64,000 nt of DNA from NCBI GenBank assembly GCA_020137815.1, contig CM035354.1:5456001-5520000 (forward strand), read 5' to 3'. The notes below the pieces were generated by a model that had not been told where the DNA came from, ran no database searches, and worked only from the letters and a program-made list of their open reading frames with translations. Position 1 is the first letter of the stretch. Every line of letters starts with the position of its first letter. This document shows, piece after piece, positions 20,457 through 53,802 of the stretch. The position numbers and the translations under genes are program-made. This stretch comes from Hormiphora californensis. Taxonomy: Eukaryota; Animalia; Ctenophora.

Positions 20457-20488
20457 TTAACACTTATACAATCCTAGGTTTAGCTATT

Positions 20489-24859
<4,371 letters not shown>

Positions 24860-25419
24860 GATGGTGGAGCGGTGTTAGGGTTGGAGTTAAAATACCCGGG
24901 ACTTTTTTGAGGAATTTTTATTAAGCGATATCTGAATATTATGAGTTTGTAAAGTTTTTGTCACACACACACCACGCATTTGAGAGTTTGTAAACTGTAT
25001 ATGCTGCTGAAAAGGTTTATTTTTTTCAAAATCCAGGTTCAATCTCTGATTCTGTGGGACGTGTCCGTCACACTTTTTCCACTCTTCCTTGCGCATCATG
25101 GGCGTTGTTGGAGGGCGCGGGGATGGGGTTTTGGGGAGATGAGCGCAGATGTGACGCGCGCACGCTTGTAACACTTCGAAACTGATCTTGGATTCATTTT
25201 CAATGAATGGGAGAAAACATCACATGTTTGTTGAATTGCAAATAACTACATTAAAGCAATAAATAGAATTATAAAACAACTACACACTCTCCTAGCACAT
25301 ATGTCGTGAAGAGGAAAGACTAGAGGATCCCTTCGTCATTCACGGTAAAATATAGTATGTCAACCATTTTAGGAAAACTCTCCAGTATATGAACGACTTC
25401 TAAAACCAAAAGCACTTAC

Positions 25420-26781
25420 GAGAATGGCACTCGTTGGGAGTGGATCGATTTCCCCGGTATTTTAGAGATATTAACTGCAATATCTACGATGGTGACGTTT
25501 TGAGAGAAACTTCAAGTGAGGCAGGGGACCCATTCTCCCTTCCTCGTCGTTCACTAGAACCTTAAATATTAAGAATATATATATAATTCGAGTGAGTAGG
25601 GGAAAGAAGGCTTTATGAGGGTATAACATAATCGTTTAAACCTTTAACATGTCATGTGGATTATACATGATTTAGTAAGAGAAGGAACGGTTTTCTAGGG
25701 TATAATCATTTAAACTGTCATGTGGGTGCATATGCGATTAGGGAAGCATAAAAATGGGATCAAACCTTGACAGTTGCAAAGCTTGTCCCGTATATAAAAG
25801 TAGCATTGCTCTCGCCACCCTCATGTTTCAGGGCCTCCCAGGATTCCGTAGATAGAGGCAGAGTTTCCTCCTCTCCATTGCCGCCTCGGAGGGTAATGGA
25901 GTCGATATTCAGACCGAGACTGCTAGCAGCAGATATGGATACTGCTGTCGGTTCATCTGGACAGGAGAGAGATGAGGGGTAGTTACTAGAGGAGAGAGAT
26001 AGGAAGGTTAGACATGAGAGAGGGGATAGAGACAGAAAAACAGCGAAAAAGATACAAGCCATTAAATTTGAAAGCCAAAAGTAGGTCAGAGAGAGAGAGG
26101 GGATCACTAATGGTTATAGCTCGTAGTTATAGGTATGTACATAGTTATAAACATGAGCATGCGGTCAACCATTTGGTTACAAAGTCACCCAGTTAAGGGT
26201 CTCTCGCGTGAATTTGTGAATCATTCAGCAGAATCTGAGAGCCCAGAAAATCAGAGAAAAGAGGATTATAACTTAAATTATAAAGTATATCCATTGACAA
26301 TTAACTACCTTCATCGAATAGAGTCCAGTTAACAGACAAGTCCCCCTCGGTCCCACCATAGAATATTCCAGATAGGGTACTGTCCTGAGTGCTCCAAAGG
26401 GAGGTAGCATTGCTGCTTGTCGAGGCAAGAAGCATATTAGCCTCGCCACAAATTGTCGGGTCAGTACACCCTGGATTGTATTTCCAAGTCACCTCACATG
26501 TAACCTGCAGTACGGGGATCATATTGGATAATGGGTATTGAATTGTTGTTTCGATTCGAATTCAACCCCCATCCCTAGTCCCTCTATTAACGAGATGCAT
26601 ACAGATCTCAACATTTATGCATTTATTAATGAAATTGAGATTCGAGAAAAACTCCACAAAAGCTGTTCAATTTGTAAATTTACTTTTTGTGACAATCACC
26701 CCCGCCCTGCGATAACTTTCAAATGCCACGTACCTGGTGGAGGCTCGTCCCCAGAAGAAGTAGAATAGAGGCAAGCAACAT
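25420..26781 (-). pseudogene. GLMP: Partial copy (exons 1-4) of glycosylated lysosomal membrane protein GLMP/NCU-G1
   Basis: Signal peptide MLLASILLLLGTSLHQ|VTC, then EVTWKYNPGC...LSVNWTLF...GRMGPLPHL. The copy stops at 25351, just before the next acceptor. Confidence 0.6.
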
Positions 26782-27151
26782 TTTACACGCACACAACAGG
26801 GTATTACTGAAATGGTGTATCGGGTTACTATCATGTGCATGCACAACTGTAATCTGAGACATACGTCATACATACCACGTGTCCAATATGGAACCAGCTC
26901 AGAAATTATTATTGTGATTGTGATTGGACGATGAATTACTACAGCTGAATAGTTTGGTTTAGGATTATATATTAGTTGACCCAGGATTATACCTAATACC
27001 CCTGCAGCAGTAGAGGGTGGGGTGTTTTCCCCCGACACCTCAATTCTGTCTGAAAAGTTGAAAAGTATGCGAAACATTTGCCACAACGACACACGTCTCA
27101 CAGCTACTCAACTTGACTTTTTGAGAGGGAGTGATCCCCGATATCTCTCCA

Positions 27152-27183
27152 CCAATCAGAACGCTCGATACAGGTCACGTGAC
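27152..27183. promoter_or_regulatory. CCAAT box plus perfect GTCACGTGAC (CLEAR/E-box) about 400 bp upstream of the GLMP ATG; mirrored at 50648-50679
   Basis: Sequence CCAATCAGAACGCTCGATACAGGTCACGTGAC. GTCACGTGAC is the MiT/TFE CLEAR consensus. Confidence 0.5.
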
Positions 27184-27597
27184 TACTATACTAGGAGACT
27201 TTAACTCCACCCAGTTTGACAAATCGTTCTGTGATATCTTTTTCTTAGTTCAATCTCAGTTGTTTTTTATGCCAAATTTGAAATTTGGTTTTCAAAAGTC
27301 ACTTTGCAGCAACCAGTAATATAATAAACCTGTCATAGCTTCGATGGGGGCATAGTTTTTCAGCAATGAATATATATATATATATATTGGACAATCATTT
27401 CATCTATTTGTCTGTCTAGCATGATAGACAGCTACTAGTCTTATTTGTCTCACTCTCCCAGCTCTAAGTATAAGATACAATATCTCCCAGCTCCATTAGA
27501 TATAATGGGGGTTGCCTAGATAATACCAGATATGGAAACTATTCCACTACGAAATCTCCAGCCCCTCTATGTATAATATACAATATCTCTATTAGAT

Positions 27598-29414: not shown

Positions 29415-29514
29415 NNNNNNNNNNNNNNNNNNNNNNNNNNNNNNNNNNNNNNNNNNNNNNNNNNNNNNNNNNNNNNNNNNNNNNNNNNNNNNNNNNNNNN
29501 NNNNNNNNNNNNNN
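29415..29514. other. Assembly gap (100 N)
   Basis: Run of N, followed by degenerate CT-rich, low-quality sequence to ~30120. Confidence 0.99.
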
Positions 29515-30025: not shown

Positions 30026-30346
30026 ACGTATCTATCTCTCTGTCTCTCTCTCTTTCTGCCTCTCTATTTCTGCCTCTCTGTCTCTCCCTGTTCCTGTCTC
30101 TCTTTTGTATTTTTTCGATCCTCTGAAACACTGTTTCCCGGGGCATGCAAAGGTGACTGTGTCTTAATGGGCCACCTTTCAAGCCAACTAATTTTATTAG
30201 TTTTTGGCCTAATTTTTACGGTTTTTGGTATATAAAGAATAGCACAAGTTTCTGATGCTCTAATTTAGAAAATTATAATTTTTTTGCTGAATGATAGATA
30301 AAATTTGATATCAAACATGATCTCTTAGGTGTGGTAGGGTAATGTG

Positions 30347-30636: not shown

Positions 30637-31113
30637 ATGATATTCCTCGTTATCTTCCTTCTCCACAGTTCGACGTCCACCTCCTTCCAGGAATGTTACT
30701 CTACATCAAACATCAAGTGCCCCACGCCAATCTACGAGGAAGTCCGACACCAATTCGACAGCTGCACATTGGAGTCAACATGCACGGGAAGAGTGCAGCA
30801 CGAGTACGTTCGGTCAGAGACGTTCTGCCGGTTCGCTGTGCACGTTACCTGCACCATTCTTGAGGAACCCACGGAACAGAGCTATTTACCAACAAGTGAT
30901 ACTCCTGCTGCAGAGACATCATGGGAACTACAACTGCCAACAATCGCCGGAATCGGAGGAGGTGTCACAGTGATCATTGCCTTCATCATTATACTGATTG
31001 TTTGCCAGCGGTGCAGCTGCTGCTGCCACACCGACTACCAGAGACCACGAGAGATCGACACGAACCCTTCCAGAAGAGGGGGCAGAACAGCCACTGCTGA
31101 AACTGTTTGTTAA
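30637..31113 (+). CDS. Small intronless type I membrane protein (158 aa)
   Basis: Signal peptide MIFLVIFLLHSSTSTS, 6-Cys ectodomain, S/T/P stalk, TM IAGIGGGVTVIIAFIIILIV, juxtamembrane CQRCSCCC. Confidence 0.7.
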   Translation: MIFLVIFLLHSSTSTSFQECYSTSNIKCPTPIYEEVRHQFDSCTLESTCTGRVQHEYVRSETFCRFAVHVTCTILEEPTEQSYLPTSDTPAAETSWELQLPTIAGIGGGVTVIIAFIIILIVCQRCSCCCHTDYQRPREIDTNPSRRGGRTATAETVC

Positions 31114-31313: not shown

Positions 31314-31433
31314 TACACACACATACTCTTTATTTGTCACAAGAAAATCACCGTCATTTGTGTTTGTAGTTCATTGTTAGAATCATGATAAATATTATAG
31401 CACATTCCAGTTTTTGAATAATATACATAAACA

Positions 31434-33243
31434 TTAAACAGGACCGAGCATATTTCTCAAATTATTTGCAGTCTGAACTATGTAATTGAAAAGCTTCACT
31501 ACAAGTGTAGTACAAATTAGGACTAGTATTAAAATAAATACTGCACCAACATATAACACGAGTTGTACGAACGAGAGTTTCTTTGTGTTATCTTTTGTGT
31601 CAACCTGAAGTTTATCTAAGAGATTAGTAGACTTCTTGTTGTCAGTAATGATATTGTTTATAAAGTGCGACAGGTTTGTATGTGTAAGGAAGTGTGTGTA
31701 TAAGGTGTTAACTGAATTCTTCAAGACTGTCTGGTTGATGGTGAAAATGTTGGGATTTTCTAGGTATGATATGGTCACCAACGGTAATCTGTGTCCTATT
31801 GGGTGACCAGTGTATAAACTGTGGGTCCATGGAGCCTGTACATTTGGTGTACAGAACTCCCTTCGGGAATGAAATGTATTGGGTGCCAGTACAAGGGCTG
31901 TGTTCGACCTTACAAGACATTAGACAAATCCTGAAGACAGGATGGGCCCACCACTGTACATGAGTCCCTCTGGCAATCCACGTCCCGCCATACATCATTG
32001 ACCCGCGCCTGGTAGTTGCTCAGGGAAATCCGAACAGCTCCATTGGCCATGGCCAGACCCGTCTGAAATGCCTTGTAAATGGCTGGACTTCCAGGTGCTG
32101 GCTTTCGGACAGTCAGGTGTACCTGGAAGCCGGTCGATGTTTCACCTTCCCAGCATTCCGTCGGGCTAGCTAGTGTCGAATCCTTCAGCAATGGCAATAT
32201 ATTGGGGTTCCACTGTTGGTCAGCCTCCAATAGTATTGCTGGTCCAATTTCATTCACTCTTTTTAAGAGTGACACCAGCTGGCAGTAAGTCTTGATTATA
32301 TTACCCTGATGTTAAAAAAGGATAGGTAAAAAACACTATCATAACTGTGCAGTATCGTGGTCAATAATAAAATAAAATTATTAGTGTCACAAAAATGAAT
32401 AAAAAAGTAATTACCAACTGAATGTACAGGAGAATAGAATTGGTGTGGCACTCTGTCTCCAAGGTTAGCTGATGTACCGCACTGTCTTGTTCGATTGCAA
32501 GAAATATCTGGTTTTTCGTGCTATCAATTCTCTTAGAAAGTATCTTCCTAACCAGATCCTCATTCATTATAAGATTATCGATTGTCGATCTTGGATTTCC
32601 TAGAAAGGTGGTGACGGATTAGATAATCGTTGATCCATGCTGATTGCAAAGATGTTATATAGACCAATACATAAGTGAGTTTAGATTTTAGTGACAACTA
32701 TGCTAAGTTCAATCCTGATCAAATCCCATGATAATGATTATGCTAAGACTTACGATGTTTACAAGTGCAGCTGTTGAGCTGGTTTGACAATTCCCTCTCT
32801 AACAATAACCATCCATCAACACAACTGAAAAGAAGAATTTCAGTGATAGGGAATAGGGTGCACTGCATTGACACTGACAGTAAAAAATCTGACATATGAT
32901 CTATTACACTCGCCGATGCCCGATAACTACTATACCTTTTGAGCTCAACTTTTGGAGTGAAGCTACTCTCCAACTGGACTACTACTGGTGTTGGTCTAAT
33001 AATGATTGGCTTCTCAATCACTATATTTACCGTTACATCCTCAAGGTTAACTGAAAATTGAAATGTAATTTTGAACATTGAGAGCATTCGACTTAAATCT
33101 TGACTCAGATAAAATATATCGCGAAAGGGCTTACATTCAGAATGCGTCGTCCGTACAAGTGCCAGTCCTAGTTGTTTGTAAAATATCGTTTCTGTTGCTT
33201 GTGCCACTGCCAGGAGGTGAACTAGAGAGATGTACAGAAACAT
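31434..33243 (-). CDS. Putative viral-type envelope/fusion (F/env-like) glycoprotein, 5 exons (33243-33135, 33050-32936, 32824-32754, 32639-32415, 32305-31434), with 3 apparent 1-nt frameshifts
   Basis: Signal peptide MFLYISLVHLLAVAQA, N-terminal IFYKQLGLALV, basic RKxR-type site, Cys-rich ectodomain, sequons NRT/NQT/NLS, membrane-proximal amphipathic helix, C-terminal TM FVQLVLYVGAVFILILVLICTTLVV. The family assignment is by architecture only. Confidence 0.5.
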
Positions 33244-33342
33244 AGCTATATAATAGAGAGGATTTTGATTATTGGTCACATAATAATTTGATATTATTTG
33301 ATTATTATTATTATCATTATTACACACAGTCATTTAGTTTCA

Positions 33343-34490
33343 TTAAAATACACCATGGGATAAAAAATCAACAATTATTTTGATGTAGGAATCATTGCAT
33401 GATGCAGTTGTATTCAGGGCTTTCTTGATACTGTGGATCACATCCTGAAAAGAATTTAGCTACTTAGATAGTATAGAAAACTGCAGTTAACTGGTCACAT
33501 TAAACAATGGCAATCACGATTGACATAGACATTTTGAACACATATAATATGTGCACTATATTTTACATAACATAGAGATATTATTTACCTTTCTTAGTTT
33601 GCAAGCGTAAGTTTCACTCCTGACTCCCCCAATTAATTGTTGAGTGTGCCACGCCTGGTAACAGATGATCGTTTGTTATGAAAATTACAGAAAACGCTAA
33701 GCAAATGTTGAAATTTTGTTAGATACTTTAAATATTTTTTAGCGGGATGTACCTGTTTCTCCATTTAAGTGTTGTTAATCGTTGAACAAGAATAAAGGGG
33801 TCCTTGTTTTTTGCCAAGCAATGCCGACAATAATGATCGCTGGTGTTACTTCCATCTTCATGATGCTCGAATATTGTACGTCTTCCTGTAACATGCTCAA
33901 TTAGCTTCATGACATCTCTAAACACTGCAGCTACTTAAATCAGGCATTATTGCATACTAGAATGAAGTTTAAATAAAGGTTCTTTTGATTACCTACATAA
34001 ACATACTGGAATATTATGCAATCTATGGTCCAAGATTACTGATTGTGGGGTTTCCAGATACTTGGCATTTTTCCAATATACACAGTCAGCTTCATGATTT
34101 GATAGGTCAGTTTCGGTAGTCGAGTTTCTCAACACACGGACATTCACTGGTGTTTACTTTTAGGAGAATCATATTGGTGGAGCGCCACTTAACAGGGTTT
34201 ATATATCTGAAACATGTAAGGTTGTTCAATACTATTTTCAGATTAGTTTAAAAATATTTTCGAGAAATCAGTTATACGATAAGTTTAGGTGAAGTTACCT
34301 CAAATGTCTGGAGCGTAGCTGGTGGATCCAACAAGTATCAGTATCCCGATTTATCCACTCCTGTACTTGCTTCTGTCTTGCGTTGGATGCAATTTTATTA
34401 GATCCCACTATCTAGATCTACTAACAGTACTCATTAACTTACACACACGTAAAAATCAATGAAATATATATTTGTCTCAGTTTCCATCTC
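33343..34490 (-). CDS. Cryptic multi-exon gene of unknown function (frame disrupted)
   Basis: A series of short GT-AG-bounded segments: IVGSNKIA...RSRHL, ...CVYWKNAKYLETP..., VFRDVMKL...HYCRHC..., AWHTQQLIGGVRSETYACKLRK (33654-33589), DVIHSIKKAL...HGVF* (33444-33343). At least two phase mismatches. Confidence 0.4.
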
Positions 34491-34786
34491 TCATAGAATA
34501 GTTGCTGTTAATGTTATCGAATAACAAATATAAGAAATACAAAAACTTCACATATTACTTCTAATGATACTAACCTAGTAAGAACACTCAACTACAAAAG
34601 ATTAAGAAAATAGAACTTCTACACCGCTTTCTCTCTCAAAATAACAACCTGCTTCCATCATCAAGTTCATTATTGAAAACTAGATGTTATATGTAATCTT
34701 GATCTTCCTTCAAATTAGTCAAACCTCTACGTGCACCGGGGCATCTCTGTCTGTCACAGAATAGTTTTAGGTCAGCCAACTCATCA

Positions 34787-35420
34787 ATGACAGAGGAAAT
34801 GGCCTCAATGAAAGATGTACTGTTGAAATGCCAGCGAGAGGTAAATCAGATCCAGAAGCAGATTATCAACATGCAGAGCGAGGAATTAAAATCTGTGAGA
34901 TCTGTAACTGAGACTGTACAGAAAGACCTTTATTTTTGGTCTGCTGTAGTGACACAAAACTGTGCAGCAGCAACTGCACTGAGAAAGATTGGGGCGGCTC
35001 TCCACACACCGCAGCCCCCCAAAGAAGATAGCAGAGCTAAGAACCTTATTGTTTTTGGCCTGCCAGAGGAGGAGAACGAGACAGTTACTGACTGTGCACT
35101 AACTGTTTTTGAGGAGCTCGACGAGAAGCCTCCTAATCATCATCTTGTAGACTTGGAACCGCCGCTGAAGGGAAAACACGGCGCATCAGGGTTACCTTGG
35201 AGTCTAGAGACAGTGTTCTGACTCTACTGAGGGAGGCCCGACAGCTGAGAAGTAGCGAAATCTACAACAGAGAGTATCTCTGTCCAGATCGGACTATTGA
35301 GGAGAGACGAGAGAGAAGAGAGAATCTACAGACACTTGGAACTTATAAGAGATAACCCTGAGAGACAGTTCGAACTGAAGAGAGGGGTTATACAGTTTTT
35401 GTGCAATGGCCCCACTAATA
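34787..35420 (+). mobile_element. Isolated CR1/L2-type LINE ORF1 (coiled coil + RRM-like + CTD), frameshifted, no ORF2
   Basis: Coiled-coil N-terminus and RAKNLIVFGLPEE; then, in a shifted frame, RLG...RRIRVTL...LLREARQLR...YLCPDRTIEERRERR. Confidence 0.7.
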
Positions 35421-35730: not shown

Positions 35731-36210
35731 TTATTGTTTGAGGGCCTCAAACTCAAGTAAACGAGCTAAAATATTTGCTCGGTAGAGAGGAAGCTTACCT
35801 GGAGAGATGGTTGTCATTGGTAAACCAGCCAAGTATAGCTCGAGGTTGACAAGAGCATGAACCCCACAGTCAAATGGATTTGCCTGGCGAACAGATCCTC
35901 CGTCCTTAATAGCATGAGTCCTCAGATTAACTGATACTGGATTCAGTTGAACACCAAGATCGCTTATTGTTTTTCGATACAGCTGGAGACCTTTGAGATA
36001 GTAGAGGCATCGTTCAGCAACGTCCTGGCTTTGATACCTACCCGAATCAAAATACGAAATTGTTTTGTGCGATGGTCGGTTATCAATGATTGTCATTATC
36101 CAGTGGTCCGTAGATAGATTACCGATAAGTGCAATAATGTCCTTATCCATGGGATCACCGTCTGCGATTATTCGCTCTTCTTTTGTACCAGTGATCACTC
36201 GTGTCGAAGA
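35731..36210 (-). CDS. Catalytic half of a Ulp1/C48-type cysteine protease, in frame with RepHel after a single TGA
   Basis: DHWIMTIID, YFDS and RQANPFDCGVH give the H-D-Q-C set. The N-terminal motif WLSDDVIQEY lies upstream of the TGA at 36213-36211. Confidence 0.8.
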   Translation of the reverse strand, partial: SSTRVITGTKEERIIADGDPMDKDIIALIGNLSTDHWIMTIIDNRPSHKTISYFDSGRYQSQDVAERCLYYLKGLQLYRKTISDLGVQLNPVSVNLRTHAIKDGGSVRQANPFDCGVHALVNLELYLAGLPMTTISPGKLPLYRANILARLLEFEALKQ

Positions 36211-39200
36211 TCACCTCCTGTGCATATAAGCCTGATTGATATACGTTGGTAGTATTTTGTCTTCGAAATCCCTCTCTGTGAGTTCACTCAGGCTCAATTC
36301 ACGGATGTTCTCTCCAGCTGGACAATTTACATCTCGATAAGTGTCAAAACATGCCGCCATACTAAAAAATGAGTATCCGGCATTCGAATTTTCCACTCTA
36401 TCGAGAACAGCCCACATATATTCCTGTATGACGTCGTCAGATAACCACTTATCCCGCACCCGTGATCTGTTGAATGGATCTGGATTCAATTGCAGAGCAA
36501 GTCTATTAAGGAAGCCATCCAAAGAATCTGCCAGGCCTGGAGTGATAATGGTCGAATACAAGATGTTTAGTTCCACCGATGTCATACCTTCCAAGTGAAA
36601 GTTAGCATTTCTTCCCCTTCTTGCCAGTGAGATGATTTCCTGTGTTTCATTGGTACCCGGGGCTTTCTGTGTTGTAGTGTTCGTTTTATTCTTTGTCTTA
36701 ACCGCCTTGACTTTCTTCTTCGGACGACCACGTGGCTTATTGACAACATTATCCTTTACGACATTGGTGATTCCATCCTTGGCCTTAGCAACTGCTCCTT
36801 TGTTTACCCACCATTGCCGCTGTTCGAAGCTCTTGCCCACCTTAAATACAGAGGGAGGCGCTTGTGGCATGTAAACACTGTTGTTACTGATACGCACATA
36901 CTCTTTGAGAGCAGAAACGTTAGCAATACCTTTCTTAGGGGAAAAGTTGATCAGGTGCAGCCCAGCTAGAGATCGAACTCTAGAAAGACAGACATACATC
37001 TGGCCAGGTGCGAAGAGTCGGTTACCAACATCCGTGAGCACAGTGTCTAGGGTAAGACCTTGTGCCTTATGTATAGTGATACTATAAGACAGGGTTATCG
37101 GGAACTGGGACCTAAAAAAGAATCCCCCGCTGAAAACCATGATTTCCCTCCTGTCTCTCAAAATGTCTTGTACATCATCAATATCATCAAACTTGATAGA
37201 GATTTTGTGAACAATTTTAGAGATAGGGTCGAGGTGAATCTTTACAATGGTACCCATGCTCCCGTTAACAAGGCCTTTCCCTAGATCGATATTGCGGCGA
37301 AGCATGACCCTCACATTTTCTCCTACAATAAGAAGCTGTTCCAGAGCTGCCGTGTTTCGCGAATCGTCTAGTTTATCAAGTTTCTTGATAGCCTGTTCGA
37401 TCCGCTGCCGCTTTGAGGCGATACAAGGCTGGATGTCATCAATGGCAGGAATAGTCACTGTCTTTGAGACAGTGGACTCCAGCATTGCATCGTTGAACTC
37501 ACCCACCATTGCTTTGGTGGGGAGCAAACAGACAGCTCTAGGGTCATGCTTCACAAGCTCCTTGTAATATTGGATAACCTCGATCTTGCACTTGTGTATA
37601 TCATCTCTTTCCTTGAGTTGTATAAGACGGGTTGATAGAAGTTTCACATCATCCCCTGTCATACCCCCAACTCTCAGTCGACCGAGCAACTCCTTCCACT
37701 CTTGTCCATTAGCAACTGTCATTTTTTGCCGCTGATTGATGTTCAACTCTGCGTACTCAAATAGACGCCAAATATTCTGGGCGAACTGGACACCACCAGT
37801 TAGTTTTTGTATCTTCTCGGAAGATATTTCCTCGAAAGGATAGGCCGCTTGAACAGGCTGAAGCTGAAGAAGATCACCAAAGAGGATAACGCACCTTCCG
37901 CCAAAAGGTTGATTACCTCCAGGTTGACCTTTGAACAGCTCAGAAAGTCTTAGGCTGATATAAAACAAAAGTATATTTGATACCATTGAAATTTCATCGA
38001 TAACGACACACTTCAGGTCAGAAAATACTTGCCTAGTCCTGTGAAGTTTGTCGCCTTGATATGATGTATATTTTGGTGTTTGACCGTGCTGAACGTTGAG
38101 TGAAAGTGCTGCATGACATGTGAAACCCCCAATTCCTAAAGCTGCAACTCCAGTTGGCGCCATCAGCAACAGGCCCATGTCCTTTTTGTGTACCTCACGC
38201 TGCACAAAACAGAATCCTGTCAGTGCAGTAATGAGGTACGTTTTGCCTGTTCCACCAAACCCAGACACATAAAGAAGAAGTTGTCCAGTGCAACCTTCTT
38301 CTTTACATGTCCCGTTGGTGTGTTCAGCTTCCATATGAAGCAGCCAACTGGTCACTTTGTTGTACACATCAAGTTGATCTTTATTGAGTGTAGCAACAAA
38401 GTTGTCGAGCTCTTGTTGTGTTTTGATACCACTTTGGCCTGTATTTTGTTGGTAATCATCAAGGATACCATCCATTCCAGGGTTGTTATCTGTCCCATCA
38501 CTATCTTCATCTTCAGCATCAGTTTTTACAGCTGTAACTTTACCATTGTCATCACCTGCGTTGTCTCCTTTCACTGCTTCTTCCACTTTCGTCTGCATTT
38601 CTGATCTGGCCTTTTCAATATCCAGTCTTCTCGCCGAATAATGTCGTAAGTCTTCAAATTCAGGCACATTATTGTCGATACACCGAAAGAACTCCTCCTG
38701 GTAGGTTTTACTTTCCCCCAGTATGTCTGATTCTTGTCGCCATGTTTTGTACAGCGATAGCATGCTATAATAAAACAGTTCAGGAGATTTCTTCACGTTG
38801 TGGTGGTGGTGATAAATGACGGGCTCTTTGTTTCGGACCTTCAACCTACAGATTTCTTTTCCCTTAACACGGAGAGGGGTGCCCATCGTACCGTAAACCC
38901 GTTCATACTTTGAAATGAATCTGAACAGATTTAGACTCTCATCCTTTTTCATCCTGTTAGGGTAAAAGTCGTGAACCCAGTCACGGTAGAATAACTCTGT
39001 CGACTCTTCATTCTTCTCCAGCTCCGAAACTTTCTTGAGTGTTCTTGACCGTTGTTCTGGCAATGTCGTGGGCACCCACACATACTTCTCCGAGCTAGAC
39101 CACAACTCGCCGCCGGTAAGAAGCATGAGGTCGCATGCCTCGTTGGCACTCATCTCACGCTGCTTAAGAAATGTGTATGCGAACTTGATGTATTTCTGAA

Positions 39201-42200
39201 ATGCTGATCCTGAAGTGTCTGCCATACTCGAAAAGTCACAGTTGATATTGCTTATTTCCCCTTTCAGCATATACTTAGTGACATAATCAGTTATCGAATA
39301 CGAGTTTTCGGAAAGAAATTGGATATCCATATTACCACCCCATAACAAGATACATGTCGGATTGTATGCATTGATGTTTCTTTCCTCGTGACTTCTTACC
39401 AAATCATACAGTCTCTTTCTAAATTTGTTTCTTGCCCTGCCTATCAGACTTGATAGAACGTCCCTTAGGAGGAACTGTCTGGAACTGGGAAATGGAAACC
39501 CGAATCTGCATAGCAATGTAAACCGGAGACTTGGAGACTTGACACTTCGAAGGCAATACTTTCTGCAAGCATGCATCTGGAACTTTTTTACAACTTCGTA
39601 GAGCTCGGGTTCTGCGTTCTTGTCTGGTAACCTACACGTAATGACCCTCTGGATAAATGTAGCTGCTTCTTCATCGGTACAATTGCCAAGTATGGGTGCG
39701 TTTTCTATCCACAGGAAACAATGGAAATGGACAGTTCCCCTGCCTTGGTATTCATATCTGACGAAGTGTGACTTAACCTTGCCCAACGGCTGCCCATTAA
39801 TAATAAATTCGAGGAGTGCTTGAAACTTTGTGTGAATAAAACGAGCGGTAAGTGCGGGCTCTTTGTTGAGAAGCTCACTGTCTGTCAGAGAATCAATATT
39901 GGGCAAATCTTTGTTCAAATCCCGAAGCATACCAATTAGTTCGGGCCAGGCATACTCAGCGGGACTGAAAGTAACGAAAAACGTCGGAGGGCCATACTTC
40001 TCCGTCTGTGCTCTCAGCTTACTTTTTACGCTTGCCCAATACTGTTTCGTCCCAGGAACATCTCTAAGGCTTGTTGTAATCTTCCTCTTTATGCCATCAT
40101 CATTGCTTTTGAGTTTTTGAAGTAACTCTCCAGACGACAGTTTATCAAGACCATGCACGTTTCTTAGTGCACAATACACACTCTGAGAAATCTTTCGACG
40201 CAACTGCTCCCCAGCCAGATAGAACACGTATTGTAAGTTTTGACGAAATCTCGAATCTCCAGAAAGTAATTTTGTTTTAGTATACTGTGCCGGGCCACAC
40301 TTTAAACTTACAGGTCTTTTGTCATGGAGGGATCCTTGACCGTAACAGAAAAGTTCAGGGAATGACAGCAATTCGAGCCGTTCATCACTCGTCAGTAACG
40401 GTGTTGATTCTACTTTTAACATTTCATAGAGGCTGTCTAGATTACTCTCCAAGAGAGCATCTAAGTTCATGAATGACATCTCCTCTATCCGGTTTTTGAA
40501 ATCGTCTGGCTTCAACTTTTTAATCAGTTTCCTTGCTTTTTCCGTAGTATCTGCATCAGCGCCAGCGTGAGATGATCCTGATGTATTGAGACTTGAAAAA
40601 TCCGATATAACCACATCATCTTCTTTGATCTCGTTGTCAGGATCACTGCTTTGATCCACAGCAGTAGTACCACCACACACCAGTCTGCAACTCTGTTCGG
40701 AATCAACACTTGTACTGTCGATCAATGACGGATTGGATGAACTCATAGTTGTATTAAAATCGTCTTCCCCACATACCACACACAAAAAGCAGTATGAGTT
40801 TAAATTATCCAAACGTAAGACAACATCATCAAGCATGTGAGTCAAAAACGTGGTTTCCAAATAGTCAGGTTTGAAAATAAAGCCACCTTTTAATCGCCGG
40901 AGCTGTTTAATAACTTGGTCCAGTACCTTGGTGCAGTTTTCACCGCACACTGAATGCCTTATCCTCTTACTTTCCCATGTCACGCACAGTTTATGTAGCA
41001 TATCTTTGTTCAAATCTTTGTCGAGTTTTTCACCAGTACATTTGTAATCTACCTGGTCTGCAAGTTCCTGCCACGATGAGTTGGAAGTTCTGGTCCAAGG
41101 TGCAATGTCCGGGTGCTGTTGAACTAACTCAGGTGCGGAGATAGATTTCTCACATTTCATACACTGATCGCTCGAAGAAGACTCCATAAGGTCAATTAAT
41201 CCACCGATGATAACTACAACACGATCTGCTGTTGCTGCAATTTTTGAGTTCTTTGTTGTTAAAGGACTAACAGTTTTCTCGCCTTTACCTCGTTCGTCTG
41301 GTGTGTTATAAACACAATCGACACAAAGGTACTTTGATTCAACAAACAAGTCAATCATATTTGCTAACGTTTCACGTGCCTCGACTAACTCTTTGTACGT
41401 TGTAATATTTTCCTCTTGTAGGGCTTTGCTTCTCTTCACTTTCTTGGAAACGCTCAGGTGCCCATTGAATCCATGACACAGTCGACACAGCGTTGTTTTT
41501 TGTTCCAGTACGGTGTATGGTCGCTCAGCCTTTTTCAGCAACTCTTCAACTCTTTTGACTCGCTGGATCAGTGAATTTTGACTAAGGAGTACAGTCCCTA
41601 GTCTCAGAACATGAAGTCGTGTCAATAGGAGGTGATTGGCACAATGTTTACAAACCGTGTCATATCCTGAAAGGCGTCTTAGCGAATGAATGAATTTCCG
41701 TCCTAGCACCTCTTTAGTGTGCTCTGCATCTATTCCCCCTTGAGAAAGAAGCACTGGCTGTGTTTCCTCAGCAGATGTCTCGGACACAATTGTCAGCTGT
41801 GAGGGCTGTGTTTCCTCAGCAGATGTCTCGGACACAATTGTCAGCTGTGAGGGCTGTGTTTCCTCAGCAGATGTCTCGGACACAATTGTCAGCTGTGAGG
41901 GCTGTGTTTCCTCAGCAGATGTCTCGGACACAATTGTCAGCTGTGAGGGCTGTGTTTCCTCAGCAGATGTCTCGGACACAATTGTCAGCTGTGACGGCTG
42001 TGTTTCCTCAGCAGATGTCTCGGACACAATTGTCAGCTGTGAGGGCTGTGTTTCCTCAGCAGATGTCTCGGATACAACTGTCAGCTGTGAGGGCTGTGTT
42101 TCCTCAGCAGATGTCTCGGACACAATTGTCAGCTGTGAGGGCTGTGTTTCCTCAGCAGATGTCTCGGACACAACTGTCAGCTGAGAGGGCTGTGTTTCCT

Positions 42201-45200
42201 CAGCAGATGTCTCGGACACAACTGTCAGCTGTGAGGGCTGTGTTTCCTCAGAAGATGTCTCGGACACAACTGTCAGCTGTGAGGGCTGTGTTTCCTCAGC
42301 AGATGTCTCGGACACAACTGTAAGCTGGGAGGGCTGTGTTTCCTCAGCAGATGTCTCGGACACAACTGTCAGCTGAGAAGGCTGTGTTTCCTCAGCAGAT
42401 GTCTCGCTAACAACTGTCAGCTGTGAGGGCTGTGTTTCCTCGAAAGACATTTCTGACAAAATTGTGTAATCCGAAGAATTGCTCATACACTCATCAATTG
42501 TCAAAAATGATTCATCACTGTGCAAAGGAACGACATCTTTTTCTTCAGATTCAGACGAACTTTTTCCAAGTTCGCCAAGGAAATCAATCACGTCCTGACT
42601 TCCTACCACATTTGCCTGCGGCGACGGCTCTCCAATATCAAATTGAGGAAGTATCTCATCCGGGGTAGCAGGGAGCTTTACATCAGCATACTGGTCGTTG
42701 TTGTTCACAAACCATTCCAAAGCGCGATAAACCTTATTTACGTCCACCAAATGATGCCAAACGAACTTATCTTTGTTTGGTACGCCCAGAAGCTGGATCA
42801 TCTTGTCTGGGTCAACAAGGGCACCTGGCTTGAGATCGTTTAGCTGGGACACAGTATCTTCAAGAGGCATTGGTATATGGACGCAGAATCCTTTCATGGC
42901 CTTCATTTTCTCACTTCTTTTCAAGTGACCACCGGTTGGGCCAAGAACAACTGTACTCTGGAACATACTCACTCTCCGCAGAAGCATTTGCTCAAAAGTG
43001 TTCAGGTCCTTTAACTCTGGAGGACAGCATCCGGCATCAAGATTGTTTGCTACAGATGTACGTGGCATCTTCCCAAGATTGAGTGAGCTATGACAATACT
43101 TGCACATAACTTTCCCTACTAAAGTTGTGATTGGAGAATATCCTCGGCGTATGTGTTCAGGGCTGTTCAAGTATTCCAGCAATTTGACAAACTGTGACCC
43201 AGGCTGATTTACCTTTTTCATGCGTTTACTTAGAAGCACCAGCTCGTCTTCTTTTATCAAGATTCTACAAGAAATGCAGGTATCTTTATAAACGCTTGTG
43301 GTCTGAAAGTAATATTCCAGTGTCAGTTATCCGAACGGGGGGGGGGGGGGGGGGGTTGGGGAGGGGATTACTTCCCAGCTCCTAAATAGGACTGAGATGT
43401 ATTACATTAAATAATGATTTCATTTTATTACAAACTAGTATATCATTTTCATTTTTACATGCACATACCTTGGTTATAAAAGTGTCGTAATGTTTGCCGT
43501 ACTTCTTTCGAACAGAACTGACAGTAACTGGACCTTCGCTTGGCAGACGATCAAACGTGAGGGGCGGTGTTGGAAAAGAATACATCAAAAGCTTTAGAAT
43601 GTATTCTAGGTCCCCTGTTACACACGCAGTGTCCAAGTCGCATAAGAATCCATCCAGGTGCTTGAGAGATGCTACCTGTCTGAAAATTAAAACAAAGTGT
43701 TAGCATGCCTTAGCCTCGGTAGTATAAACCTAAATTGTGAGCGTAACTAGCCGATGAGTCAGACAATTGTAACCGGTCCCTGCGGGACCATTTACAATTA
43801 TCTGCCTCATCTGCCATTCATTAAAATGAATTTACCTGTACACTTTTCTTGCATCCCGGTAGTGAACTGAAAGGTGCTGCATTGTAATGAAGGGACTGCC
43901 ACATGATGTAGCTGGGTCGTGACACTTCTCGGGATGATTTTGTTTTTCGGCATTGAGGATGTAAATATCCTTAAGAGGAGATACAGCATTCCCACTGGAG
44001 CACTTGGTGACAATGTGTAGATATTGCCTAGCTTTTTTATAATCTAGATCTTTCAACGTCTGCAGTTCTTTCAAGAATTCCTCCACCTGTCTGGGAGTTG
44101 CACCTGAAACAGGGGCAAGTAAAGGGGTCAAAATAAATTTAATTTGATATTACAGATTAGATATTGGATATTGGAAGTGTGTTGTACCTATACAGTTGTC
44201 GTCACAGAGTTGCTCGCCCCCAGTCTTGCCGCCCGTGTACTCTGCTCCATCCTTGAAGGAATATTTTGGGAAGTATGGTTCACTACCGGATGCATGGCAT
44301 GCAATTCCCAGGATCTGGTTTCCAACCTAAAGAAGTATTAGGGTAGAATTGAAACTTCCAAATCAATATTTAAAGAACATCTAAGCATGAAAATGCACCG
44401 AAATGATACAACAGCTGTAATTTGGACGCATGAAAATGAATCTTCAGCTCGATTTCAGTTACCTTTTTTGTCTTTTTAAGCACATGCCTAGCCAGGATTT
44501 CTTCAGCTGTAGATTTTAACTTTGAGCTGCCAACACCAAACCATCGAACAAGAGAATCTCTCTGTGTTTTTACTCTGATTGCAAGATTATTTACAGCTTG
44601 CCGTCTTAGTTGGCGTGGAGTCTTTCCAACTCCGTCATCATTGGGGTTTAACAGCTTAATAATCTTCTTTACTGCGATATCAGTAGCTGGTTCAACACAT
44701 TTCCGGATTACACTGATCAGAGAAACCTGGTAATTTAGCATGGTTTTTTGTTGCCTGTGGAACCGAGTTCTAAAAACTCCATTCATCCTGTCCCGAATGT
44801 TTTGAAAACTCGTTGAATTTGGTAGCCGCGGAGGAAATACTTTCTCCCTGTCTCGAAGAACAATCCGGCGATTACCAAAGAATCGTTTGCAAACAGCTCT
44901 GCTCAGTTTATGCTTTTTAATTGTTTCCAGGGCCTCCTTATTCTTAGGGTCGGATCGTATTCCAGTGAGATCGAAGGTTGTTTGTCCAGCACTTAACTTT
45001 TTCGACATCCTCTTCTTATAAGCAGCTGCATTCTCACATGTTTTCCTTGCAGTAATTTTAGTCCTCAATTCTGCGTTTTTCATTGCTCTCCTTACCGTGA
45101 AGCTGCGACGAATTTTTTCTGACTGAGCATGGGCTGCGTTTCCCTTTTTGTCTTTGTACTTTTTCCTCAGCTGTTGAAGTAAACTTTTTGACTTATCTGC

Positions 45201-48200
45201 ATTCAACCACTCTTTCATTCTCTGCTTCCCTAATTCAGACGATTTGAACTTTTTATCTGCAGTACTCTGTATTTCCTTTCCCCTCGATGAACGTCTGTAA
45301 TTTTGCTTGGCTTTTGCAACACCATCTGAGCTATAATACCTTCGATTTGCAGCACTCAGGGATCGTTTCCCTTGTTGTGAGCTAAAGTACCTCTGTTGAG
45401 CAGCACTCAGGGATCTTTTCCCTTGTTGTGAGCTAAAGTACCTCTGTTGAGCAGCACTCAGGGATCTTTTCCCTTGTTGTGAGCTAAAGTACCTCTGATG
45501 AGCAGCACGGTCAGATTTTTTCCCTTGTTGTGAGCTAAAGTACCTCTGATGAGCAGCACGGTCAGATTTTTTCCCTTGTTGTGAGCTAAAGTACCTCTGA
45601 TGAGCAGCACTGTCGGATTTTTTCCCTTGTTGTGAGCTAAAGTACCTCAGATGAGCAGCACTGTCGGATTTTTTCCCACGATCTGAACTCGCCCACTTTT
45701 TCTTCGCAGCTTTAGTAGCATCTATTCCCTTACCAGTGCTGTATCTTTTGTTCCTCGCCGCTCGCTTACGTCGTGGAGTGAGTAAGCTATCAGTATCATA
45801 ACAAGGACTTGTTCTTCGTAGAGATCCATTTTCCTCATCTGTTTCATTTTGTTCATTGCTGATTACCATACGTGTCGTGACAACTTGTGACCTCAAACTC
45901 CTGGTTCTTTTCATAGGTGTCTCTGGCAGTGGCACGGTCACATGTTCATCGACTAACCCCTCACTACTTTTAAATTTCTTCTCCCACTTTTTCATTGATG
46001 GAGTCAGCAGTAGTGATTCGTCGTCCAAAACCTCAGATGTACGTTTCCGGGGACTTCTAGTTCTTGGCGTCTCTGGCACGGTCACATATTCATCGACCAA
46101 CCCCTCACTACTTTTAAATTTCTTCTCCTCCTTCGTCATTGATGGAGTGAGCAGTAGTGATTCGTCGTCCAAAACCTCAGATGTACGTTTCCGAGAATTT
46201 TTGGGAGACTCTGGTTCCTGTTCAATTAGTGGTTTTTCTCTATCGCCAGTCTTATCAGTTGAGCTCTTTGATTTGAATCTTCTACCTATTCCAGATTTTT
46301 TTCTTTTCCTTCCCTGGTGAAATAGATTGGTGTTACATATTACATAACCAATAACTTCCTAATCACTAATAATACAATTAGTTTTTGTTTGTGTGCGATA
46401 TGACTTATGAGCGGTATATAAGCGCAGAATATTATTGTTAACATTGTGGATATTGCACTATACAGCTGCAGACATCACCCAATCACTTCATACAAACACA
46501 TCACCCACACACATAAGCAACCGTGTACGGTAGGTGATTGATCATCAGCTTTATAACAGCACGAGAGAGCCGTGCCTATCATGTCACTAGTATTATGAAG
46601 GGATCTGAAGGTCATGATAACAAGTAGTATGATTTACAATTGCATTATGAATCACGACGTCATACTACTTGTTACTATTTTTATTATTATTATTGTTATT
46701 ATATCGATATGACTTTAGACACGATTTTTGATTGTATTACCTTTGGTGCGCCTCCAGTGAGGGTATACTTCTGATGTCCAAATAGTTGGGATTCATTATT
46801 GTCAGGATCCTGAAAATATTATTTAACTTAGAAAGTGAATAAGTAGGTATTTAAAACCTAAAAATGAATTTTTTCAAGTATGTATGTTAATGTATTACTA
46901 CAAACCTACATTTGTATTTTCAATGTAAATCTCGAATTTACATTCTCCTTGGCATGTGCACGAGTTGTCGTACTCCCTTCTGAGTGCTTGATAAGGAACA
47001 CTGCCAACATTTGTTTTACTAATGGGTTGTTTTTTCTTTACAAAATCAACCCTCCTCAAAGCCAATGCCTGAAATTAGGAGTGTTTTAAATTGCGAGTAT
47101 GAATGAAATTCAATATATCCCAACAATTACATGTAGCTACTATTTAAACATTAAGAGCTTCAACTTACACGAGTATTATCCTTTTTAAGTGTATTGCATC
47201 CTGTTTTCCTATCCTTCAGTAGTACAATTTGAACATGACGGTGAATAACGTTGAGTTGAACTTCAAAGTCGACCGCGACCTTCTCAACATCCACCGAGAT
47301 CCACCGTCTCATTCCAGTATACTGTCCGCCCTTCTGTAGGATTTGGGATTTTGTAACACGTTAAATTATTGATCAGTTTGGTTAATTATAAAATGGTTGC
47401 AAGCTATAGATATATAATTCCCATTCTTACCTTACTGAAGTTCCAAGTGGGCCTCTTTGTTAGAGGAAGTCGATATGTCTCTTTAGGGGTATCAGGTACA
47501 GCTGTAGGGACATGTACCAGCTTTTCAGGAGCAGTAGGAATGGCTTTTATAGAGACCGGTACCAGCTTCTCAGGTGTGGGAGGAACAGCTGTAGGGACAT
47601 GTACCAGCTTTTCAGGAGCAGTAGGAACAGCTGAATGAACACGTGCCACCTTTAGAGGAGCAGCAGGAGCAGCTAGAGGGATCTGTATTACCTTTGTGGT
47701 ATCAGGGATAGAAAACGGGACCTGTACCAGCTTCTCAGGGACTGCAGGTACAGAAAAAGGGACATGTGTCAAATTTTTAGGAGTAGTAGTACCTGCTGAA
47801 TGAACACGTGCCACCTTTAGAGGAGCAGCAGGAGCAGCTAGAGGGATCTGTATTACCTTTGTGGTATCAGGGATAGAAAACGGGACCTGTACCAGCTTCT
47901 CAGGGACTGCAGGTACAGAAAAAGGGACATGTGTCAACTTTTTAGGAGTAGCAGGAACAGCTGTAGGGACATGTGAAATCTTTTCAGGAGCAGTAGGAAC
48001 GGCTTTCATAGGGACATGTACCAGCTTCTCAGGTGTGACAGGAGCAGCTGTAGGGACGTGTACCACCTTCTCAGGTGTGACAGGAGCAGCTGTAGGGACG
48101 TGTACCACCTTCTCAGATGTGACAGGAGCAGCTGTAGGGACGTGTACCACCTTCTCAGGTGTGACAGGAGCAGCTGTAGGGACGTGTACCACCTTCTCAG

Positions 48201-48960
48201 GTGTGACAGGAGCAGCTGTAGGGACGTGTACCAGCTCTTCAGGTGTGGCAGGAGCAGCTGAAGAGAAATTTGTCTTCTTTTTAGGGGCAGGAGGTACAGC
48301 TGGACGTGCACTCAACTGGCTGAAAGATCGAAGTCCCCACATCAGACTGGACTCTGCTCCCGAGTCATGAAACGTCAGATCGACTCCCTTAATGCAGTAT
48401 CGAAGGAAAGAGTACCCCGCTAAAGACAAGTGGAGGCCATCTCTCCGTGATATGTAGTGTTTGTAGGAGAAATATTCTTTTCCCATACCTGGTAGGAAAT
48501 GTACGCCCTCCAAGCAGGCAATTAAGGTGCTTAAAAGGGCATTGAAGTGGGCAGCGTGCTCAGCATGCTGTTTCCTAGGAAGAATAGGTATACAAAAGAT
48601 ATTGGCTTTCGGAAACTTGTGCTTTGCAACGTCAAGGAGAATACTGTAAGCAGCCAGCATTGAGTCAAAGTTAGGAGAAGGCTCGAGGTCATTCGTCCCA
48701 ACAAGTATAAACATGCTGTCAAGAGCAGCATCACCCGATATAACAGTGCCTTTCAGAGCATTTGCAACATGATTTATCTTCTTTCCGGGAAACGGGTGCA
48801 CACGCAAGGATTTAAAAGAAGTGGAGAAATTTCTATCTTCATGATATTTATCATTAGGCTGCACATACCTGATCATAGAATCCCCAATAACCATGACGGA
48901 GCGGGGAGAATAGGGGTACGTAGTTGCCTCAGTAATACATCTGCCAGTAGAGTACCGCAT
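36211..48960 (-). CDS. Helitron RepHel polyprotein, 9 exons: 48960-47431, 47333-47169, 47068-46910, 46809-46741, 46313-44463, 44326-44188, 44103-43836, 43679-43469, 43302-36211 (~3,830 aa)
   Basis: All 8 introns are GT-AG with compatible phases and no internal stop. SGNH motifs: GDS, FPG, GTND, DGLH. Rep motifs: PTFFVTFSPAE, RYEYQGRGTVHFH, YVTKYMLK. Pif1 motifs: GFGGTGKT, APTGVAA, IDEISMV, GDLLQLQPV, GLVNGSMG, TIHKAQGLT, GQMYVCLSR. Confidence 0.85.
41755..42441 (-). repeat. Coding 48-bp tandem repeat (~14 x EETQPSQLTV/IVSETSA)
   Basis: Visible in both the DNA and the 2349-aa ORF. Confidence 0.95.
45330..45690 (-). repeat. Coding 51-bp tandem repeat (~7 x YFSSQQGKKSDRAAHQR-like)
   Basis: Visible in the 44370..46172 ORF. 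Confidence 0.92.
47480..48260 (-). repeat. Coding 42-bp Pro-rich repeat (PTAAPVTPEKVVHV) with a higher-order ~160-bp duplication
   Basis: Visible in the 47404..48960 ORF. Confidence 0.9.
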
Positions 48961-50164
48961 AGTGATGTTGTTGAAGTTGGTCGATATCGGATAGAAAGCA
49001 AAATATAACGAAAAGCGAAATGGTGATTTCTGAGAGTCATCCCACGGGTTTTAAATTTTTGTTTTTTTAAACTGTGAAAATTATTGTTAAGTTCCTAAGT
49101 AAGGTTTCACTCTTTTTTAATTTCTACGATTTAAAGGCCAAGTTTGAACAATGTGGGGGCCCTATTTAAACAGGGATTACGAAAGGGGCCCTGATATTTC
49201 TGGACCTCAAAGGGCCAATGAAAACCTTTTATAAGAAAATTCTAAACACCAAGACTGTTTAAGACCACGTATTTTTAATTTTTTAAAACCAAATTTGAAA
49301 TACCCAGTTATCTTTTAAAAAAAGGAAAATTTAAGAAAAGGGAACATTACCCCTTTTTTTTTTTTCCCCCCCGGGCCCCCCCCCTTTGCAAATTACCCCC
49401 AAAATTTCCCCTTTTTTTTTCTCTCTTTTTTCCCCTTTTCTCTCCTTTCTTTCTTCTATACCCTTCTCCTCTCCTCTCTTTTTTTCCTCTCTCTCTTCTC
49501 CTCTCTTTACTGCCTCTTTCCTTTATCACCTCCCCTTCATTTTTTCATATTAACTTGTCAATATGCATTAATGGAAATATGAAAGGAAACGAAAAGTTTG
49601 TGGAAAATCGTATTTTAGACGTCATTATGACGTCATCCGACGTAATCATTGACGTCGTGACGACGTAATTGTATCACGATATATTTTGAATCAATACGTC
49701 AAAGGATCTTGTAAAGTTCTATTGACCAAAGCGGTCAGGAAAGGGAGTTTTTGCTCGAAATACATCGAATTTACTGAATTTTTCGTCAAATTTTTGACTT
49801 CCGACGCGATTGAAGGGCTCAAAATAATGAGATATGAAAATTCGCGATATAAAAACTGAAAGTTCAGACAATTTGCCGGTAACGATTTTTCGTCAAATCA
49901 GAAATCGGAACACGTCTTCAGGGTGCTAGAAGCGTTTGAAAAAAGTTAGTCAGTCTCGCGCAATGACGTCACTGATGACGTCATTGCGCGCGTCATAGGT
50001 AAGATGGAGAGTCGCCACCCAGATGGGTACATGCACGAGACAATTATCTGTCGAATGCCGCTTGGCTTAAGGTCGTACGATGTCTGGTTCATCTCAAACT
50101 GGGACCAAACGGAAGCTAACAAAGCGTCTATACATGTATGTATGTATGTATATATATATCAACC

Positions 50165-50367: not shown

Positions 50368-50457
50368 TATATACGCTGTGAGCAAGCGGGCCGTTCTTTG
50401 GGGGAATTTTTTTCGGGGGGTTGGATGGGGCCACCTTTGCGCTTGCCAGCGCAGTGA

Positions 50458-53736: not shown

Positions 53737-53802
53737 ATATCTGCATCGAATGTAATTCTATGGAACAAAACTTGTGTCTATAGAGATTAGTACAGATATT
53801 AA

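Follow-up and report, generated by a model that had tools for sequence, protein, structure and literature searches.

F-type envelope (ENV) genes of Ty3/gypsy errantiviruses are widespread in animals, including cnidarians, ctenophores and tunicates (PMC13524379). In Drosophila, Iris is an F/env homologue without a fusion peptide that has been proposed to act as a decoy, and the intron of Iris-B arose from coding sequence (PMC1262188). Among rolling-circle transposons, DUF6570 marks the Helitron-like elements (HLEs) of group HLE2, with DUF6570 and C48 both known HLE features (PMC11417382); Helentron ends carry short inverted end motifs with a 3' hairpin (PMC4067079), and Helitrons bear the SGNH texim genes of fish (PMC4021074). 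Here we describe a 64,000-nucleotide (nt) stretch of the genome of the ctenophore Hormiphora californensis (contig CM035354.1 of assembly GCA_020137815.1, positions 5,456,001 to 5,520,000), which we call the window and within which all coordinates are counted. At 33243-31434 on its minus strand lies a broken, probably spliced gene for a predicted type I glycoprotein, which we read as F-derived and as non-fusogenic cargo of a Helentron-type element. We give this reading as a whole an even chance; its parts are graded separately below.

For the protein, the closest known systems are the F proteins of pneumoviruses and paramyxoviruses, namely respiratory syncytial virus (RSV), human metapneumovirus (hMPV), parainfluenza virus 5 (PIV5) and Newcastle disease virus (NDV) (PDB 8vt2, 6cxc, 9hvw, 2b9b and 3maw). 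Common to these and to the protein predicted from the window are a signal peptide, a basic site near amino acid (aa) 100, a Cys-rich beta region, a short tail, and a domain II-like sandwich of about 60 residues that lies about 55-60 residues ahead of the transmembrane segment (TM). Unlike these proteins, which have 529-574 aa, the window protein is about 90-125 aa shorter and has no hydrophobic peptide after the site; its gene is a nuclear gene with predicted splicing, and the sequence similarity is not significant. Like errantivirus F-type ENV, it would be an F-type envelope gene on a mobile element of an animal genome, and errantivirus genes are a plausible donor pool. However, errantivirus ENV lies behind gag-pol between long terminal repeats (LTRs) and keeps a furin site and fusion peptide (PMC13524379), whereas the neighbour here is a RepHel transposase, with no LTR, gag or pol seen. 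The word 'Helitron' is absent from the main text of that paper. Iris is a fixed host gene without a cleavage site (PMC1262188), whereas the window gene has retained a minimal R-x-x-R and seems to travel as cargo of a transposon.

With HLE2 and Helentrons the element shares Rep and Pif1, DUF6570, a Peptidase_C48 cargo and F-x-R ahead of the HUH motif (PMC11417382, PMC4067079), and with the texim Helitrons of fish an SGNH cargo (PMC4021074). Unlike a strict Helentron, it has no apurinic/apyrimidinic (AP) endonuclease family that we could find, and its Peptidase_C48 follows the helicase. In Rep motif 2, F-V-R is present, and G-T-V stands where G-S-P or G-L-P would be expected (PMC4067079). Its 5' junction reads A/TC, as in Helitron1, with A-T in the empty-site copy, whereas HLE2 and Helentrons insert at T/T. 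Because the endonuclease is missing and the junction is A/TC, we regard the element as an atypical HLE2. It also differs from known HLE2 and Helentrons in that it probably carries two membrane glycoprotein genes.

The F-like gene and its predicted product

The gene is laid out as follows.

33243-31434, minus strand: whole F-like gene, five predicted exons, five open reading frame (ORF) pieces
33135..33243, minus strand: predicted exon 1, with ATG, signal peptide and IFYKQLGLALV
33051..33134, minus strand: predicted intron 1 of 84 nt (GT..AG), with no stop and no change of frame; contigs of sample S2 show a 1-nt indel inside it
32936..33050, minus strand: predicted exon 2
32825..32935, minus strand: predicted intron 2 of 111 nt (GT..AG), with no stop and no change of frame; exon-like GC content (0.40), the least certain intron
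32754..32824, minus strand: predicted exon 3, with three Cys and a helix-like segment
32600..32753, minus strand: predicted intron 3, 154 nt, GT..AG, stops in every frame
32415..32599, minus strand: predicted exon 4, with R-x-x-R at its 5' junction (aa 99-102), maximum hydropathy (KD19) 0.33
32306..32414, minus strand: predicted intron 4, 109 nt, GT..AG, GC content 0.25
31434..32305, minus strand: predicted exon 5, with Cys-rich beta region, F domain II-like beta-sandwich, pre-TM helix, TM and tail

An earlier note on this DNA, made from its letters, had described an F/env-like glycoprotein here. The five ORF pieces lie on the minus strand where it had put them, and GT-AG introns can be placed at the four predicted positions above. 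Exons 1-4 together with exon 5 up to the first frame break give 288 codons that stay stop-free across the four predicted junctions. Reading through the two later breaks (as X) yields a product of about 447 aa, rather than the roughly 460 aa reported, with 13 Cys. Hydropathy and sequence agree with the note on an N-terminal hydrophobic stretch (the predicted signal peptide) with IFYKQLGLALV, on the Cys motifs it quoted, on three N-glycan sequons (aa 329, 348 and 368 of the read-through product), and on a strong TM from about aa 400 (KD19 up to 2.9) with a short tail. As for the heptad repeats HRA and HRB of class I F proteins, the share of hydrophobic residues at a/d positions is 0.55 versus 0.43 in exon 4 and 0.56 versus 0.30 before the TM, values that come with no control run.

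The putative basic site needs no base to be removed, contrary to the earlier note: it is a single minimal R-x-x-R (R-N-P-R, aa 99-102) built across the predicted exon 3/4 splice junction. We infer that the note had used an upstream acceptor for intron 3 (32639), which we rejected because the frame then stops at aa 120. The acceptor with first exon base 32599 stays open and removes the shift at the basic site, so that two breaks are left of the three 1-nt shifts described. The note's caveat that no hydrophobic fusion peptide follows the site holds in the four-intron model, where the next 25 aa have a mean hydropathy (KD) of -0.4.

Both breaks lie in exon 5, near 31.92 and 31.76 kb, where tblastn of a related predicted protein (P0001, below) switches frame. 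Six DNA runs from two samples carry the stretch, the window perhaps stemming from the best-matching sample, and four of them were compared as read contigs, which cover 31340-35400 only. At both breaks the read contigs of all four runs deviate from the window by short multi-base indels; the breaks are therefore not the single-base slips that had been proposed. Exon 5 has extra partial copies with unrelated flanks, a depth 2-4 times that of exons 1-4, and loose ends at 31647 and 32245. Since read contigs pool copies, to which the partial ones of exon 5 add, the breaks may be either mutations of the window copy or assembly errors. With two frame breaks in the cargo and one stop ahead of Ulp1 in the transposase, the window copy is dead as regards both the cargo and the full transposase. 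We also observed, in read contigs of both samples, a 201-202-nt tandem duplication (31477-31678) and partial exon 5 copies (31647-32245) with other flanks; such copies indicate that fragments of the gene are dispersed across the genome.

The F-like gene is real. Among 1.84 billion representatives, two clusters of predicted proteins are related to it. P0001 (271 aa, 72% identical, E 4e-48) is continuous over exon 5, through both breaks, and P0002 (289 aa, about 30-35% identical, E 2.5e-30, four near-identical cluster members) is continuous over exon 5 and has the layout of the window copy, including the N-terminal signal peptide (by hydropathy only), the single C-terminal TM and the short tail. 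The Cys pattern of exon 5 and the TM are preserved in both. No further or longer homologues were found in that set beyond these two clusters; P0003 was dropped as a chance match to a repetitive bacterial-type adhesin. Twelve residues of P0002 inside the domain II-like sandwich are missing from the window copy and P0001, and in the window/P0001 lineage this sandwich may have been reduced.

Judged from its substitutions, the F-like cargo is apparently under purifying selection. In run X6, whose coding differences mix paralogous copies, 15 of 35 such differences are synonymous (0.228 expected, p = 0.007) and none gives a stop, among the 40 of 61 rows listed. In sample S2, all three indels between exon 1 and intron 4 fall within predicted introns (chance 0.116), and the only indel seen in intron 2 keeps the frame. 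Near-identical 151-nt records occur in two sea-water metagenomes, which makes a marine host probable. A seawater run labelled as RNA has three records of 151 nt (depth 2-3), of which the two close ones extend into predicted intron 4 and may be DNA; one run presumed to be RNA, under the same species label, has no record matching the F-like gene. Splicing of the gene is predicted from its sequence.

Likeness to class I F proteins

The earlier note had called the protein a homologue of class I F proteins. It probably is a homologue of the paramyxovirus-type (class I) F protein, though this is unproven: F proteins come first or near first in structure searches with the model of P0002, and no match is significant alone. 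In searches of the kinds that the note proposed, made with the natural relatives, Foldseek put RSV F at rank 1 (E 0.009) for the model of P0002, and HHalign against F profiles gave probabilities of 0.5-2.1%.

The structural evidence comes from two models. Model 1 (P0001) includes the pre-TM helix; model 2 (P0002 residues 1-192) opens with three helices. With model 1 there was no significant Foldseek match. Named F proteins made up 7 of the 50 BFVD rows listed, the best at rank 2, the PDB list held five F chains, and a wide search with VIA gave TM-helix matches only. With model 2, the RSV F that headed the Foldseek BFVD search had a probability of 0.97 and a TMq of 0.31, and named F or fusion proteins filled 10 of the 50 rows listed, beside several bunyavirus glycoproteins. 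In a second look with VIA, ranks 1-9 and 42 of the 50 listed rows, which are redundant, were F chains. Residues ~127-190 of model 2 (127-188 in the best match) aligned there with hMPV F 368-431 (Z 6.3, root-mean-square deviation [rmsd] 2.5, 59 aligned) and with RSV F 401-465 (Z 6.2, rmsd 2.4-2.5, 59-60 aligned), a segment that we take to be domain II. A wide, unbiased VIA search covered 48,161 chains and put RSV and hMPV F at ranks 3-6 (Z 5.1-5.5; 56-65 residues aligned at rmsd 2.5-2.9), F accounting for 9 of the 50 rows listed. Of the F head fold only the domain II-like part is matched (Z 5.1-6.3, rmsd 2.2-2.9, 55-65 aligned), and this part is as far from the TM as domain II is in F. An offset of 273 carries Cys120 and Cys144 of P0002 to 393 and 417 and the start of its TM to 513; in the 574-aa pneumovirus F the two Cys stand at 393 and 416 and the TM starts at 519.

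Sequence comparison gave fainter signals. Pfam searches with the window pieces, P0001 and P0002 returned nothing relevant, nor did PDB sequence searches. The F profiles drew on three virus families, with 4 proteins from pneumoviruses, 21 from paramyxoviruses and 38 from baculoviruses, with family labels inferred from motif and length and with one metagenome-like contig (L063) left out of the baculovirus set. Profile Smith-Waterman (SW) comparison gave the natural proteins z scores of 3.3, 2.7 and 1.0, the first of them against pneumovirus F with 1 of 100 shuffles. Likenesses of single exons to pneumovirus F seen by eye failed shuffling and were not used.

Several points weigh against our reading. 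Searches with hmmsearch against the F profiles gave E values of at least 0.079, the HHalign probabilities are mostly at control level, known F pairs used as positive controls reach z 27.6 and 7.0 compared with about 3 here, and all 10 piecewise tests were non-significant, none putting its piece best at the expected position. Both models are poor (pLDDT 43 for model 1 and 54 for model 2), and the informative one comes from P0002, only about 30-35% identical to the window, whose matched domain is 12 residues longer than the window's. No structural match is significant alone (Foldseek E at least 0.009, VIA Z below 8), and in the wide VIA search two unrelated small sandwiches, the C-terminal domain of RgpB (Z 5.7, rmsd 2.4, 55 aligned) and DIG8 (Z 5.6, rmsd 3.2, 58 aligned) tie with F. 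ESM Atlas features place P0002 nearest to class II fusogen clusters (0.89-0.84, a lead only), and a window piece found unnamed phage clusters only (0.91). In the four-intron model a fusion peptide directly after the basic site is absent, exon 4 reaching a KD19 of 0.33 at most. Finally, neither intron 1 nor intron 2 contains a stop or shifts the frame (chance about 0.05 and about 0.04), and some of this sequence may be coding; the 1-nt indel within it speaks for intron 1. A class I F-like protein is the best reading available, not a proven one, and since the basic site has no fusion peptide behind it when four introns are assumed, the protein is not to be counted as a functional member of the F family.

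Much of the same evidence would suit an unrelated type I membrane protein, of the host or an orphan, that has a small Ig-like domain and was picked up by the Helitron, its likeness to F reflecting a common fold and generic architecture. In favour of this are the lack of any significant sequence or structure match, the small sandwiches other than F that share the top Z, the absent fusion peptide and the four spliceosomal-type introns. We nevertheless consider this unlikely. Four of five fold searches bring up F proteins from several virus families, apart from their share of the rows listed in the wide VIA search; the F matches are nearly gap-free, whereas most Ig and Fn3 matches need much longer chain ranges; and the Cys and TM positions are in register with pneumovirus F.

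A rolling-circle element that probably surrounds the gene

The earlier note had overlooked the transposon setting of the gene. The main features around it are these.

50430..50457, minus strand: 5' end of the element, TC after A; a 98%-identical flank copy runs on into an AT repeat there
47404..49050, minus strand: SGNH/GDSL esterase-like ORF (Lipase_GDSL_2 E 3.2e-5, below the curated cut-off), with Pro/Thr/Val repeats
44370..46358, minus strand: basic repeat-rich ORF of 662 codons, probably an upstream exon of the transposase gene
36211..43326, minus strand: RepHel transposase ORF, 2371 aa (DUF6570 E 6.5e-18, Helitron_like_N 5e-26, PIF1 4.3e-22), HUH motif FVRYEYQGRGTVHFH
35731..36210, minus strand: Ulp1/Peptidase_C48 (E 1.7e-9), in frame behind RepHel past one stop codon
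34740..35420, plus strand: repeat of very high copy number that separates the transposase from the F-like gene as an insertion, which we take to be like ORF1 of a long interspersed nuclear element (LINE), w/o Pfam support
30637..31113, plus strand: second cargo candidate, an intact gene for a type I membrane protein of 158 aa, running towards the F-like gene (convergent)
30110..30179, minus strand: inferred 3' end of the element, hairpins and a motif common with the 5' end in both orientations, w/o flank confirmation

The F-like gene lies 2.5 kb past the RepHel-Ulp1 transposase on the same strand, in what is probably a Helentron-type rolling-circle transposon of about 20 kb. The second cargo candidate has a signal-like N terminus, a 6-Cys ectodomain, a TM and a Cys cluster after the TM; it matches no Pfam family at E < 0.01, nor any below E 0.03, and is a candidate attachment protein.

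This neighbour enters a second explanation. On that view a functional fusogen of the F type is encoded by intact copies, intron 2 being coding sequence or retained in a single isoform, and the element would spread between cells by fusion, aided by the SGNH esterase and by the second membrane protein, which would serve for attachment. Intron 2 has the exon-like properties noted above, including an indel that keeps the frame. If it is kept, K-R is followed by a hydrophobic stretch with a KD19 of 1.6-1.8, close to the 1.88 of the pneumovirus fusion peptide, and the raw SW score against pneumovirus F rises from 60.1 to 67.7 (0 of 60 shuffles). The z score, however, stays equal (3.0 versus 2.9), T-rich intron DNA translates as hydrophobic residues anyway, and no capsid or gag family occurs among the 38 ORF pieces scanned. 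We therefore regard a working fusogen as distinctly unlikely. Movement of the element between cells by fusogen and attachment protein rests on intron 2 being coding. We allow little probability to the larger idea of a rolling-circle lineage with an entry kit (F-type fusogen, attachment-like glycoprotein, SGNH esterase and RepHel-Ulp1) that passes circular DNA between cells or hosts. If true, such an element would be the Helitron counterpart of env-bearing retrotransposons.

Our own reading, of non-fusogenic cargo, requires that the gene belong to the element. The 2 kb upstream of 50457 (50457-52467) recur inverted at 25351-27373 with 98% identity and are followed there by the AT repeat, and an assembly gap lies at 29415-29514. 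One copy passes into the AT repeat at the very position where the other passes into the Helitron, beside a gap, and we interpret the two copies as empty and filled alleles scaffolded together, which would suggest a polymorphic, young insertion. Terminal repeats of a giant element were judged a less likely source of the duplicate, the junction at the AT repeat fitting alleles. The flank expected from the empty-site copy is absent anywhere between RepHel and the gap, and no hairpin-CTRR-T end occurs between RepHel and the F-like gene: from 35730 to the gap there are 28 CTRR-T sites, of which four have a hairpin, all below 32 kb, and none of these is followed by the AT repeat. The motif of the 5' end (50430) is found again at 30149-30179, in both orientations and with hairpins (3' hairpin z -1.9), an arrangement like that of Helentron ends (PMC4067079), although three of its six matches in the window are internal. 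Given the flank that is absent before the gap, the lack of a Helitron-type end before the gene and the shared end motif, the F-like gene probably lies inside the element.

That it lies outside, either as what is left of a nearby endogenous virus or LTR element or as a gene of the host, with the transposon inserted beside it, would agree with the absence of any read contig joining RepHel and the gene (within their limited coverage), with the partial exon 5 copies in unrelated surroundings and with the unconfirmed 3' end. Beside the evidence on flank and ends just given, no long direct repeat pair (LTR) brackets the gene, and the ORF pieces scanned contain no reverse transcriptase or integrase family either, so we find an outside position quite improbable. 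No locus with relatives of P0001 turned up in viral and metagenome contigs, and no relative of the Rep domain in viral and prokaryote contigs, so that these contigs show no second locus where RepHel and the F-like gene go together.

Other features of the window were noted. Between the repeat insertion and the F-like gene, 33700-34420 on the minus strand holds protein-like short open frames (33934-33728 and 34153-33989) with weak Pfam matches only, possibly another spliced cargo gene. In-frame coding tandem repeats occur in RepHel (41756-42441, 48 nt), the basic ORF (45327-45677, 51 nt) and the SGNH ORF (47494-48260, 42/165 nt). The window is repeat-rich, with microsatellites, LINE-like pieces and one aldehyde dehydrogenase exon. 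At 8959-11533 on the plus strand, two overlapping long ORFs (373 and 503 codons) contain Walker A-like and DEAD-like words (TNAGKTT, ILFHDE) and have no Pfam match; they resemble giant-virus helicase-like genes. Two near-perfect foldback inverted repeats, at 53798-55110 (618-nt arms, 77 nt apart) and 19783-20460 (330-nt arms, 18 nt apart), are probably miniature inverted-repeat transposable elements (MITEs) or foldback elements.

Proposed origin, role and meaning

Helitrons capture downstream DNA. In the account that we propose, the element would have captured an F-type envelope gene of the class I paramyxovirus or errantivirus type, the donor being an env-bearing retroelement or a domesticated copy. 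The gene would then be expressed by way of host splicing and not from an RNA virus genome, as its four short GT-AG introns suggest. Intact copies would yield a protein of about 450 aa that is secreted, cleaved at R-x-x-R and anchored by the TM. Because there is no fusion peptide and no capsid gene was seen, we suggest that it might act as Iris does, as a receptor binder or as a dominant-negative decoy that counters enveloped elements whose F proteins are related to it; such a role would benefit hosts that bear the element. Two further points count against this account, namely that no flank backs the 3' end of the element, which adjoins an assembly gap, and that the decoy function is drawn by analogy.

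That the protein is instead a relative of class II fusogens (bunyavirus Gc, alphavirus E1 or EFF-1 type), with an Ig-like domain III before stem and TM and an internal loop that would account for the missing N-terminal fusion peptide, is suggested by the Atlas clusters nearest to P0002 (Phlebovirus_G2, Alpha_E1, Flavi E and EFF-AFF) and by the bunyavirus glycoproteins in the model 2 Foldseek search (e.g. ranks 25, 26, 31 and 42), but is highly improbable, since every Atlas score is below 0.9 with recognition below its mark, helices occur in both models and open that of P0002, and one alphavirus chain reaches Z 4.2 (rmsd 2.7, 56 aligned) compared with 5.5 for F in the wide VIA search.

No F-type envelope, fusogen or viral glycoprotein cargo of Helitrons or Helentrons was found in the literature, mostly open-access, with Repbase-type databases outside its scope. 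Helitron reviews and genome papers, including PMC6431247, make no link to such a glycoprotein cargo in the parts available. Likewise, the available part of the HELIANO supplement (PMC11417382) has no envelope, glycoprotein, Baculo or Fusion_gly entry; it was the one supplement covered, and those of other papers may hold such elements.

Envelope capture made LTR retrotransposons infectious agents several times. As for the transfer of Helitrons between cells and species, large DNA viruses have so far usually been proposed as the carriers (PMC6431247). The F-like cargo described here offers a concrete gene with which to test how Helitrons cross between cells and species. Even if it is non-fusogenic, it would represent a new and very divergent F-like family, with two other clusters among the 1.84 billion representatives, and a transposon-borne candidate antiviral decoy.

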